Positions 44,101 to 50,100 are shown, counted from the first letter of the stretch. The stretch: 64,000 nucleotides of DNA from Escherichia coli (GCF_002854065.1 NZ_CP024147.1), one strand, 5' to 3'. A program made the numbers.

Positions 44101-47100
44101 TGTGCTATTGCCCAGCAGAAATTTTTTAAATTAGTACTGTTCCAGGGGCATTACAAACCTTAAAACATTACTTCAATATAATTAATGTGTATATCATTCT
44201 TGATATTAATTTATGAAGTGAATTTGATATATTCCGAATTCTTAATTTACATTACTAATGTATGGGACATAACGTTAAGATGGCTATGTGCAGATTAAGA
44301 TATCAGGGTGGGGCGGTAGCGTTTACAGATATTAATTAATTGATGAGAGCTATGTTATCCGCACAATCATTTACATCAGCTATTGATATTGAAGATAGAT
44401 AAATAAATATGCTGAGAATTAATGTTAAGGAATCGTAATGGGAAACTTTGATAACTTGCTTTGATTTCATTCTCTATGAAGATGATGTCATCAACACTGC
44501 ATAAAGTGGAAATATTGAACATCAAAGAGAACCATATTTAATAAATAATAACAGAGCGTTTGTGTTTATCTGAAAAATATCATTTCCAGGAGGTAGGATA
44601 TGTCATTAAGGAGAATGACATCTGGTGAATTAGCATTGGCCAGATCGATTTTTGAAAATACAATTGATTATAGTAAGGTATGGATCCACAATGAAAAATA
44701 TTTGCCGGGTCAAGGGGAAAGAACAGCGATGACCCCAAACGGGGAAATGTATTATCCTGATGCTGTTTATAGTTCAGATTATTCATCGCAAACAATGCCT
44801 GGTGATCGTGAAACAGTAGCAGGTGCTTCTCACTTGTTTATTCATGAAATGATGCATGTTTGGCAATATCAGAAAGGGTATGCAGTTAAGTTGCGTGGTT
44901 TATTTTCCTGGGCGGCAAATTATCATTACGATCTTAATTTACAGTCAATTTCTTCTTATTCCATGGAACAACAAGCATCTATAGTTGCTGATTATTGGCT
45001 ATTGATTAACTATGGACTGGTGGCTGATTTGGCAAATGTTAACTATGTAGGTGATACAACTGAATCCGTTAACACTCTATCGGAAAAATACAAAAAGGTG
45101 CTTAATTTATTTCCTGCGGGTGTCATATGAAGAGATTCTTTTTGTTTTTCTTTTTGTCGGGATGCACTGTTGGTGATTATGTTCGCCCATTGTTACCCGG
45201 TAATGTATATTTACAAGATGGACGGGTTTGTTCAAAACCAGACGATGGAGGTATTATTTCAAATTATATTTTATATGAAGGTAAATATGGCAATGCAATA
45301 AAGCTGAAAAGAGTAACAGGTCAGTTCGACCCCGTATGTATTGACATAAGTGAGCTATCTTCAGATGTTATTTATATCGGGCAATATATGCTCTCTTCCG
45401 GAAGTAAAAAAGAATACTATGGTTTTAGAATAATTAGATCCGGAGTACGTATTTTAAGACTTGATGATAACCATATCAAATAACAGATTAAAAATTTTAT
45501 TAGTTTCATTAATGTGCTTTAGGTGAATGTTTTCACCAGGTTAACATGACGGTGCATTCTTCAAGGCATATATGGTTGATAGTATCTTCAGTAGCTCGCA
45601 TAAGTATTGAGATGTTTTACGCCAGTTACGAATATATTGCATATTTTATTCTCTGTAAGATTTCTTATTAGCACTTAGCCATTTCTAGTTAAAAGGATTA
45701 ATTATGAGTTTTGCAGCTACAGATTATCCATCCGGCGCACTAACTGGATCGGGTACACATAACGTGACTTTGAGCGGCAGCGCAGTTCCTGATGGAATGT
45801 TACTGTTTGCAAGCTTAGGGGGTACAGAAACAGTAGGGGAACTATTTACTTATTCTATTAAATTAAAAACTCCTGACATCCTGAACCTGGGCTATGTTTC
45901 CCCCGCCGCAAACCTGCAGCTCAAACCGATGGTGGGCAAAGATCTGTGCGTCCATATCGAACTGGATGGCGGCGGAAAACGTTATATCAGCGGGCTGGTG
46001 ACGGCGGCACGCGTGGCTGGTCATCAAGGACGTTCGGTGGTGTATGAACTGCGGCTCGAACCGTGGTTAAAAATACTGACCCACACTAGTGACTACAAAG
46101 CGTTTCAGAATAAAAACGTGGTGGACATCCTGGATGAGGTACTGGATGAGTATCCCTGGCCAGTGGAAAAACGGCTGGTGGAAAATTATCCGACTCGCGC
46201 CTGGCAGATGCAGTACGGTGAAACAGATTTCGCTTTTATTCAGCGCCTGATGCAGGAGTGGGGTATCTACTGGTGGTTTGAGCACAGCGAGAACAGTCAC
46301 ACGTTAGTGCTGGCTGATGCCATTAATGTCCACAAGGCATGCGCAGATTCGCCGCTGGTGTGTTATTACCAGAAAGGGCTGAAACTGGACAAGGAGTTTA
46401 TCCATACCATCACAGCAAATGAAAGTCTGCGCAGCGGACAGTGGGTGCTGAATGATTTCGACTTTATGAAGCCGCGTTCACTGCTGAAGAGCACCGTGGC
46501 TAATCCGCGTGAAACCGGCCTTGCTGAATATGAGCACTACGAATGGCCGGGAGATTACTTCACAAAGAGTGAAGGTGAAATGCTGACACGCATTCGCATG
46601 GAAGAACAGCGTAGCCCCGGTAGTCGGGTACAGGGCAGCGGCAATATTCGTACCCTGATGACAGGTTTTACCTTCACCCTGGAAAACTATCCGACAGCCG
46701 AAGTGAACCGGGAATATCTGCTGGTACAGACCACGCTATTTATACAGGACAATGCGCAACACAGCGGCCAGGAGCAGCATTTCTCTTACTCAACCAGCTT
46801 TGAACTGCATCCCACCAGCGAAGTTTACCGCCCACAACGAACCCTGAGCAAACCCCACACTAAAGGCCCGCAGAGTGCCATCGTCACCGGCCCGGCAGGG
46901 CAGGAAATCTGGACAGATAAATATGGCCGGGTGAAAGTTCAGTTTGGCTGGGATCGTTACGGTAAGAATGACGAAAACAGCTCCTGCTGGGTCCGTGTCA
47001 GTTATCCGTGGGCTGGTAAAGGATTCGGTGGCATTCAGATCCCGCGTATTGGTCAAGAAGTACTGGTGGATTTCAAAAACGGTGATCCGGATTTACCGAT

Positions 47101-50100
47101 AATCGTTGGGCGTACCTACAACCAGGACACCATGCCACCGTGGGGACTACCTGAACGGCGTGTACGACAGCACGGGGCACCTGCTGCGTGAGTTTGCTTA
47201 CGACGAAAACCACTGCATGACGCTGCACCGCCAGCCGGGCGGCGAAGGGTATTATTACCAGTGGGGCTGGTATGACGGTCCGGATGATGCGGCGTGGCGG
47301 GCACCCCTCCGAAATCTTCACCGTGACACCCCGCCCGGTATCAAATCCGGCCTCTTTCAGCCAGTCGCCCTTAAGGTTCAGGCTGGGGTGTCGTGAGTAG
47401 TACGTGGTCATGTAGGTTTTGCTGTTTATGTGGCGGGCTCTGACATAGCCGACTTTATAGCGTCGCTGTGTTTTGGAAATGGTGACTTCTGGCGTAATAT
47501 CGTGTTCAGCCATGATTAACTACTCCTGTTAGTTGCTTGTGGTGAGCGGCTGTTACAGGCGGCCACCTGTAGCAGTCGCGTTAAATATCAACGCATTACC
47601 TTCATTACCTGCTTCATCTTCTCCTGCGTGATCGCCATATCCAGAATACGGCAGATCACTTCCTGATCGTCTGCTTTAAGCTCAGGGAAAGATCATCAGA
47701 AGTTCACTTTTTGTACTAAATAATTCGCATTTTATGTTTAAAAATTGAGATATTCCTCATTACCTGAAGCTGTTTTTTATTGCTTATACATGATCAAATA
47801 CTCCTTACATAATTAAGGAGAACAAAATGGAACTTAAAAAATTGATGGAACATATTTCTATTACCCCCGATTACAGACAAGTCTGGAAAGTGGAACATAA
47901 ATTATCAGATATTCTACTGTTGACTATTTGTGCCGTTATTTCGGGTGCAGAAGGTTGGGAAGATATAGAGGATTTTGGGGAAACACATCTCGATTTTTTG
48001 AAGCAATATGGTGATTTTGAAAATGGTATTCCTGTTCACGATACCATTGCCAGAGTTGTATCCTGTATCAGCCCTACAAAATTTCATGAGTGCTTTATTA
48101 ACTGGATGCGTGATTGTCATTCTTCAGATGATAAAGACGTCATTGCAATTGATGGAAAAACGCTCCGGCATTCTTATGATAAGAGTCGCCGCAGGGGAGC
48201 GATTCATGTCATTAGTGCGTTCTCAACAATGCACAGTCTGTTCATCGGACAGATCAAGACGGATGAGAAATCTAATGAGATTACAGCTATCCCTGAACTT
48301 CTTAACATGCTGGATATTAAAGGGAAAATTATCACAACTGATACGATGGGTTGCCAGAAAGATATCGCAGAGAAGATACAAAAACAGGGCGGTGATTATT
48401 TATTCGCGGTAAAAGGTAACCAGGGGCGGCTTAATAAAGCCTTTGAGGAAAAATTTCCGCTGAAAGAATTAAATAATCCAGAGCATGACAGTTACGCAAT
48501 GAGTGAAAAGAGTCACGGCAGAGAAGAAATCCGTCTTCATATTGTTTGCGATGTCCCTGATGAACTTATTGATTTCACGTTTGAATGGAAATGGCTGAAG
48601 AAATTATGCGTGGCAGTCTCCTTTCGGTCCATAATAGCAGAACAAAAGAAAGAGCCAGAAATGACGGTCAGATATTATATCAGTTCTGATGATTTAACCC
48701 CAGAGAAGTTCGCCAGAGCAATCCGAAACCACTGGCACGTGGAGAATAAGCTGCACTGGCGTCTGGACGTGGTAATGAATGAAGACGACTGCAAAATAAG
48801 AAGAGGAAATGCAGCAGAATTATTTTCAGGGATACGGCACATTGCTATTAATATTTTGACGAATGATAAGGTATTCAAGGCAGGGTTAAGACGTAAGATG
48901 CGAAAAGCAGCCATGGACAGAAACTATCTGGCGTCAGTCCTTGCGGGGAGCGGGCTTTCGTAATCTTGCCCTGGTTCGTTGAGTTTTACTGCATTGTCGG
49001 TAATTTAGGCATCTCCTTTGTCCGTAGCTTGTTTCAGCGTCTATAATGGGCGTTAATAAATTGGCAAGTCGGGAACTAGATGTTTTCTTAATGGTATGTT
49101 GGCAGAAGAATATGTTCTGCAAGTTGAAGATTTGTTGGTGCTTTATTTAAAAGGGTGTAGTGCAAATATCTACAATTTCAAGCAGGCATTATTGTCGTAA
49201 AAACGCTTTACCGGACACACGACATTCACAATGTGTGTTAATTTTACTGACATCTTTCAAAAGGAGCGTAATCATGCCGCACATCGACATTAAATGTTTT
49301 CCGCGTGAACTGGACGAACAACAAAAAGCAGCACTTGCTGCAGATATTACCGACGTTATTATTCGCCATTTGAACAGTAAAGACAGTTCGATAAGCATTG
49401 CTCTACAGCAGATTCAACCAGAATCTTGGCAAGCTATCTGGGATGCCGAAATCGCGCCCCAAATGGAGGCTTTGATAAAGAAACCCGGTTACAGCATGTA
49501 ATGCTTAACCTGCCGTAACTCGCTTGCCGCTGGTAACAAACGTGCCAGCACCTAAATGATGCAACGTATTGAGCTTATCATCATCAAACTGCCAGCGGCC
49601 TTCGACAAATACCTGTGCGTCTGCCGCTGCTGATACTACCTCGCCAAACAGTGTGTCGTATTTTTCTTGCGCGGAAGTCGCAGGTAGCAAGCGGCACTCC
49701 ATCCACGCCAGACATTTTGCCTCGACCAGAGGCAAACCAAGTACCGGACCTTTCACAACCGGAATGCCATAGCAATTAAATTTATCTTCATCACGCCCCG
49801 ACACACTTCCCACCGCCCACGTCCAGTTAGTTGCTGCAACGCCCGGGATAACGATGCCAAATTTACCGTTATGTTCAATCAACTCCCTGGTCCATGTCGA
49901 TTTATCTACCACAATCGCCACGCGTGGAGGTTCAAACTCCACCGGCATTGACCAGGCTGCAGCCATAATGTTACGCCGCTGGGATTGCTCATCGAAACTG
50001 GTGATCAAGACCGTTGGGCCATGATTTAACAGACGGCTGGCATGGTGTAATTCTATGGGGATGAATCGGCTCATGGTATCGCCTCGCGAAGAAGGTTTTT

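Follow-up and report, generated by a model that had tools for sequence, protein, structure and literature searches.

Between ansP (42126-43712, minus strand) and pptA on the chromosome of Escherichia coli, the 64,000-nucleotide stretch analysed here (GCF_002854065.1, NZ_CP024147.1; referred to as the window, whose numbering is used throughout) carries the 5' part of a vgrG gene, a short internal piece of an rhs toxin gene and, on the opposite strand, the 5' part of a symE-family gene, joined to one another at two short microhomologies. Intact loci at the same ansP-pptA site were found by megablast among 5,426 complete E. coli genomes, and two of them serve as references below, the locus of strain PapRG-06-5 (L003) and a second intact locus (L005) that was used for the symE side. 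The parts of the remnant are as follows.

45704-47151, plus strand: vgrG remnant, codons 1-483 of 664 (TIGR03361; collinear with vgrG of L003)
47149-47151: junction 1, a 3-bp microhomology (ACC) common to the vgrG and Rhs sides (base-by-base comparison with both flanks in L003; blastn offsets)
47152-47301, plus strand: Rhs scrap, about codons 597-646 of a 1547-aa PAAR-Rhs toxin (nucleotide identity to rhs of L003)
47300-47301: junction 2, a 2-bp microhomology (GG) at which the Rhs scrap meets the interior of symE (three-way alignment with rhs of L003 and L005 and with symE of L005; blastn offsets)
47302-47513, minus strand: symE remnant, codons 1-71 of a 109-aa SymE-family gene (98% nucleotide identity to L005 9001-9248, protein alignment, NF010128)

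In type VI secretion systems (T6SS), the PAAR domain of an Rhs protein caps the tip of the VgrG beta-helix, where Gp5_trimer_C forms the trimeric VgrG tip and binds PAAR; the Eag chaperone protects the N-terminus of Rhs, whose shell bears the C-terminal toxin. The intact island of PapRG-06-5 contains, in the direction from ansP to pptA, a 176-aa open reading frame (ORF), a 118-aa lipoprotein gene, vgrG (664 aa), a DcrB-related (DUF1795) gene of the Eag type, the gene for an RHS core protein (1547 aa), a gene for a 146-aa presumed immunity protein, located 3' of the Rhs core, and symE on the opposite strand. The gene order is the same in 06-00048 and APEC 102026, where a 109-aa symE is followed by ISAs1, and the main T6SS-1 cluster at aspV of 06-00048 terminates in the same vgrG-Eag-Rhs-immunity-symE-ISAs1 module. 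In the intact VgrG, Pfam places Phage_GPD at residues 41-350, Phage_base_V (the OB fold) at 405-472 and Gp5_trimer_C at 489-594, and the intact 1547-aa Rhs consists of a PAAR motif (about 291-321), DUF6531 (395-473), RHS repeats from 587 to about 1350 and the Rhs-associated core TIGR03696 (1357-1434). The intact 9.4-kb locus is preserved to 80% or more in at least 179 genomes, a count that is a lower bound only, because the search with this query gave 248 records whereas shorter segments of it match more than 5,300. Islands of this kind have been described in E. coli T6SS genetics under the name of vgrG islands (review, PMC6730261), and in enterohaemorrhagic E. coli EDL933 the rhs gene at its "rhsE" position has been reported downstream of a vgrG of its own (PMC7216683).

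The left part of the remnant is a truncated VgrG, as had been proposed in an earlier note made from the sequence alone. The ORF at 45704-47191 (plus strand) encodes 495 aa, namely VgrG residues 1-483 followed by 12 out-of-frame codons and a stop; it matches TIGR03361 (TssI/VgrG) over residues 29-488 with an E-value of 2.5e-146, and over residues 1-483 its only difference from the intact L003 protein is M169V. The gp27-like hub (Phage_GPD) and the gp5-like OB fold (Phage_base_V) are kept, and the C-terminal gp5 beta-helix (Gp5_trimer_C, 489-594) is wholly missing, the vgrG frame being left after residue 483. The breakpoint thus falls at the start of the gp5-like beta-helix, where the earlier note had put it, and the last 12 residues of the ORF are rhs DNA read in the wrong frame. 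In the two complete genomes that share the allele, 100416 and CUWW06, the Prokaryotic Genome Annotation Pipeline (PGAP) of RefSeq lists vgrG as a partial pseudogene, "incomplete, missing C-terminus". By blastn, window 43501-47151 corresponds to L003 11102-14752 at 99.2% identity. Within vgrG, 20 positions separate the remnant from the PapRG-06-5 allele, and since 19 of these are synonymous and one is non-synonymous, vgrG was under purifying selection until shortly before the deletion. Eighteen of the 20, all synonymous, fall in codons 398-479 (window 46897-47140), a cluster in the OB-fold region immediately left of junction 1 that points to gene conversion or an allelic mosaic.

The Rhs scrap begins where vgrG ends. 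Window 47149-47301 is identical to L003 17608-17760, inside rhs (153/153 nt, E 1e-75), and window 47300-47547 matches L005 9001-9248, inside symE, at 98%. At junction 1 the vgrG side reads GGGGACTACC up to the break and GGGCG after it, the rhs side reads GGCCACC up to the break and TGAACGG after it, and the window reads GGGGACTACCTGAACGG, so that ACC is common to both. At junction 2 the rhs side reads GGCGTGGCGGG and continues with TAACGG, the symE side reads GATGGTCAGG and continues with CACCCC, and the window reads GGCGTGGCGGGCACCCC, with GG in common. The deletion at junction 1 amounts to 2,858 bp in L003 coordinates and, as this is not a multiple of 3, reading from vgrG enters rhs in a shifted frame and meets a stop 12 codons later; the deletion at junction 2 is about 3,280 bp in L005 coordinates. 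The scrap itself has 150 bp (50 codons) and no start of its own, and it corresponds to the first 50 residues of the repeat shell. Its Rhs-like peptide is read in the ORF at 47106-47396 (plus strand), in a frame other than that of vgrG, and maps to Rhs residue 597, in agreement with the YD-repeat stretch that had been noticed in another frame. The isolated scrap (a 51-aa peptide) matches no NCBIfam hidden Markov model (HMM), and its assignment to Rhs is based on the 100% nucleotide identity to an intact rhs rather than on an HMM match. PGAP left it unannotated in both 100416 and CUWW06.

On the minus strand, a SymE-like N-terminus is read from 47513 downwards; the matched part closes with KISEGC, and NF010128 (SymE) is matched at 2e-10. 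A full-length SymE of about 109-113 aa is not kept, only the first 71 codons being matched, and PGAP lists symE as a pseudogene "missing C-terminus" in 100416 and CUWW06. The 146-aa ORF that can be read here (47513-47073, minus strand) is a deletion chimera, in which the 71 SymE codons are followed by 75 codons antisense to the Rhs scrap and the 3' end of vgrG, and gene callers may report it as a protein. For annotation, this means that both the 495-aa and the 146-aa ORF are deletion chimeras that should not be called genes, and that the 150-bp rhs scrap is unannotated in RefSeq.

The remnant shares its chromosomal site, gene order and flanks with the intact E. coli vgrG-Eag-PAAR-Rhs-immunity-symE islands, and against the PapRG-06-5 island it is 99.2% identical up to junction 1 and 100% identical in the Rhs scrap. 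Identities near 100% over hundreds to thousands of bases cannot be due to chance. Compared with the intact islands, the remnant has lost about 97% of Rhs along with its PAAR domain and toxin tip; the VgrG beta-helix, Eag, the immunity gene and the 3' end of symE are missing too. The PAAR/DUF6531 N-terminal region (about residues 291-473 of the intact Rhs) falls inside the 2,858-bp deletion; the Rhs-associated core and the C-terminal toxin are missing from the window, as had been read from the sequence, and so is the immunity gene, since junction 2 goes straight into symE. The Eag gene, nearly all of the Rhs shell and the last 38 symE codons are lost as well. Unlike the intact islands, the remnant locus retains nothing that defines a deliverable toxin.

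The same island has decayed differently and independently in other strains. In TB06052, vgrG is intact, Eag is truncated and Rhs is without both ends; in A31, ISAs1 has inserted in the upstream effector gene and in Eag, abutting the truncated genes, and Rhs is gone; in APEC 102026, Rhs is frameshifted. In strain 382634_2f, vgrG breaks off at about codon 313 and is continued by an rhs fragment, which makes it an independent vgrG::rhs fusion; A25 and Z1323HEC0067 look like it. The alleles of 382634_2f, A25, Z1323HEC0067, TB06052 and A31 thus share with the remnant the locus and the outcome, a truncated vgrG and/or Rhs, but their breakpoints are unlike those of the remnant, the loss in A31 is mediated by insertion sequences (IS), and vgrG is intact in TB06052. 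The rhsE locus of K-12 (rhsE-ydcD-yncI-ydcC-pptA) occupies the same ansP-pptA site and, like the remnant, contains a decayed Rhs element, with the ISAs1/H-repeat ydcC adjoining pptA at 97% identity to the element of the remnant. In contrast to the remnant locus, K-12 lacks a vgrG, a remnant of symE and the upstream effector pair. The earlier note had suggested rhsE-type loci as the reference for alignment; this is the wrong lineage, without a blastn match to the vgrG-linked Rhs and only 30-41% identical to it at the protein level, and K-12 rhsE was rejected as a member of the same lineage. For comparative work it should be kept in mind that the "rhsE" of K-12 shares the site, and not the lineage, of the vgrG-linked Rhs of other strains.

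Two independently assembled genomes share both junctions to the base: that of 100416, from human stool in Gambia, and that of CUWW06, from wastewater in Thailand. Collinear with these two at 99.93-99.98%, the window adds a third sequence, and it comes from a third, closely related strain, because it lacks both the IS1 of 100416 (near 8830, about 8830-8838) and the IS1 of CUWW06 (near 44100, about 44096-44104). Among the 5,426 genomes, only these two cover the stretch that spans junction 2 or the whole configuration. The region 45704-47513 is identical in the three carriers (window, 100416 and CUWW06), and the deletion allele is young.

No hcp or T6SS core gene is found in the 64-kb window, judged from the RefSeq annotation of the collinear stretch of 100416, as the earlier note had stated. 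At the aspV site, CUWW06 (L011 10261-18560) contains only tssA, tssG, tssF and tssE and a tagJ pseudogene, followed by IS3, an rhs fragment and symE, and 100416 (L013 15211-46759) has no T6SS genes and carries a pco/sil island for resistance to copper and silver, with IS66, IS4 and IS1, beside another Rhs remnant. The aspV T6SS-1 cluster of H104 is disrupted by an IS1/resistance island, and 06-00048 served as the intact T6SS-1 reference. The two chromosomes were probed with a chimeric query made of the 3.5-kb locus, for which only 100416 and CUWW06 rank first, tssC of T6SS-1 (06-00048) and tssC of T6SS-2 (O157 Sakai). This query had three matching places in both genomes, and a control of the same length with tssF, a gene that CUWW06 carries, and shuffled filler had four in CUWW06 and three in 100416, which sets the baseline at three places and shows that the method detects a known gene. 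Thus no tssC of T6SS-1 or T6SS-2 lies on the chromosomes of 100416 and CUWW06, a result whose coverage leaves aside T6SS-3, plasmids and the window's own genome.

Taken together, the locus is very probably a non-functional deletion relic of an accessory T6SS vgrG island at ansP-pptA. The ancestor would have carried a metallopeptidase effector, a lipoprotein, vgrG, an Eag/DcrB-like chaperone, a PAAR-Rhs toxin and an immunity gene, with symE on the opposite strand. Illegitimate recombination at ACC (3 bp) and GG (2 bp) would then have removed about 2.86 kb and about 3.28 kb, leaving behind VgrG 1-483 with a 12-aa tail, a 50-codon startless Rhs scrap and 71 5' codons of symE. With the helix, chaperone, PAAR, Rhs cage, toxin and immunity gene gone, we infer that no spike or toxin function can remain. 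The decay would fit relaxed selection, because the two closest complete genomes are without tssC of both common E. coli T6SS families.

Several points weigh against this account. The ancestor is matched as a whole by none of the references: PapRG-06-5 comes nearest on the left side and in the scrap (99.2% and 100%), APEC 102026 on the symE side (98%) and K-12 ydcC in the IS (97%), and the deletion sizes are hence estimates. The T6SS status is drawn from two sister genomes and from tssC of T6SS-1 and T6SS-2 only. The upstream region of vgrG is unchanged, so that the truncated protein may still be made. Lastly, coverage statistics for the 5,426 genomes reveal no intermediate with one junction from which the number and order of the events could be read. 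Of the "successive deletions" of the earlier note, the deletion residue of a vgrG-rhs-immunity locus is confirmed by the alignment to intact loci, and the succession is not.

Two separate deletions are the somewhat likelier course, because single deletions of this kind recur at the site in other strains. Both junctions could also stem from one complex rearrangement, for example template switching in microhomology-mediated break-induced replication, in which 2.86 kb were skipped, 150 bp of rhs copied and 3.3 kb skipped again. That both junctions lie at 2-3 bp microhomologies, that the block left between them is short and has kept its orientation, and that none of the 5,426 genomes has only one junction are all in keeping with such an event. 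However, simple deletions and IS-mediated losses are common at the locus elsewhere, so that two ordinary events suffice, and missing intermediates are weak evidence when only two genomes carry the allele; a single event is possible, if on the doubtful side. The involvement of the neighbouring ISAs1 through IS-mediated adjacent deletion is brought to mind by its intact transposase gene about 400 bp to the right, by the ISAs1 copies that abut truncated genes in A31 and by the IS3 that abuts the T6SS-1 truncation in CUWW06. Yet neither junction is at an IS end, no terminal inverted repeat or target-site duplication is seen at 47149-47151 or 47300-47301, and junction 2 falls within symE, separated from the left end of ISAs1 by about 400 bp that include native 5' sequence and the leader of symE. 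IS-mediated deletion was rejected on these grounds, the junctions being away from the IS ends, and we regard it as very improbable.

Rhs, vgrG and ISAs1 are repeated within E. coli genomes, with several matching places each, and repeats can mislead assemblers, which might have collapsed a full-length vgrG-rhs locus. The earlier note had itself asked about such an assembly or sequencing error. The chance of it is practically negligible, as the junctions are identical in two assemblies from different continents and in a non-identical third sequence, and they lie at microhomologies of 2-3 bp in sequence that is unique rather than part of a long repeat. The note had also raised the alternative that the 495-aa ORF belongs to another family in complete form. 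A complete, functional short VgrG-related protein or member of the phage "late control D" family would explain the intact hub and OB-fold domains and the intact upstream region and neighbouring pair, and PGAP does name similar stumps elsewhere "phage late control D family protein". Against this, the ORF follows the 664-aa orthologue collinearly through residue 483, a single substitution apart, and its tail is out-of-frame rhs; it is without the PAAR-binding Gp5_trimer_C, the sister genomes are without tssC, and RefSeq marks the 495-aa ORF and similar stumps as partial pseudogenes. The collinearity makes it a truncated VgrG, and the short-protein alternative is barely credible. Programmed frameshifting was considered as well and rejected, since the downstream frame holds only 50 Rhs codons and then antisense symE.

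Such a deletion relic is a case of ordinary pseudogenisation in an island of known type; RefSeq already flags it, and it is not novel. Its value is that of a cleanly mapped example of how an accessory T6SS toxin island may erode, through deletions at short microhomologies, once the firing machine is lost.

The remnant is surrounded and overlapped by further features. The upstream pair and the two antisense RNA motifs are additions to the earlier note.

44600-45130, plus strand: 176-aa ORF with an HEMMH motif, candidate T6SS metallopeptidase effector (homology to PDB 6h56)
45127-45483, plus strand: 118-aa lipoprotein-like ORF, candidate immunity protein (NF045617, sub-threshold)
47314-47442, plus strand: full-length Rfam match to isrA, antisense to the symE remnant (RF01385, 119.3 bits against a gathering score of 51, model 1-129)
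47508-47582, plus strand: SymR-like antisense RNA motif across the start codon and 5' leader of symE (RF01809, sub-threshold)
47708-48973 (ends approximate), plus strand: ISAs1-family element (H-repeat, ydcC) between the remnant and pptA (NF033564)

The 176-aa ORF matches the effector domain of Pseudomonas aeruginosa VgrG2b (PDB 6h56) over residues 4-138 with an E-value of 2e-20 (phmmer against PDB), and its translation contains the HExxH-type motif HEMMH. It has no Pfam match even at an E-value of 10 and no NCBIfam match, and the RefSeq name "type IV secretion protein Rhs" is misleading. In the intact loci it is also found intact upstream of vgrG. The 118-aa ORF, which overlaps the effector ORF by 4 bp, matches NF045617 ("putative T6SS immunity periplasmic lipoprotein") at 2.8e-07 and 30.7 bits, below the cutoff of 43. 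Both upstream ORFs are intact, and they are a candidate effector/immunity pair.

The Hfq-binding small RNA isrA has its match 13 nt to the right of junction 2, and in the intact L005 locus isrA is found at the same position (9015-9143). The SymR-like match to RF01809 scores 39.2 bits here, against a gathering score of 61, and 48.3 bits at the same position in intact L005. Rhs-linked symE genes thus seem to carry two antisense RNA motifs; in the literature, nothing relevant was found on isrA together with symE. It is conceivable, though very unlikely, that the survivors at the locus (the metallopeptidase and lipoprotein genes and the isrA and SymR-like RNAs) are kept by selection and not by accident. 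If so, the lipoprotein could be, in a lineage without T6SS, an orphan immunity protein against the effectors of neighbours, and the small RNAs could have gained a regulatory role that is independent of symE.

The ISAs1 element contains an intact transposase ORF of 378 aa (47827-48963), which matches NF033564 over the whole profile (1-314 of 314) at 3.9e-122, and the element is 96-97% identical to K-12 ydcC and to ISEc1 of L004. Further to the left in the window, by collinearity with 100416, a gene for a CatB-related O-acetyltransferase lies at about 33520-34330 between yncL and patD, which are direct neighbours in PapRG-06-5; the CatB-related gene is thus a small strain-specific insertion.

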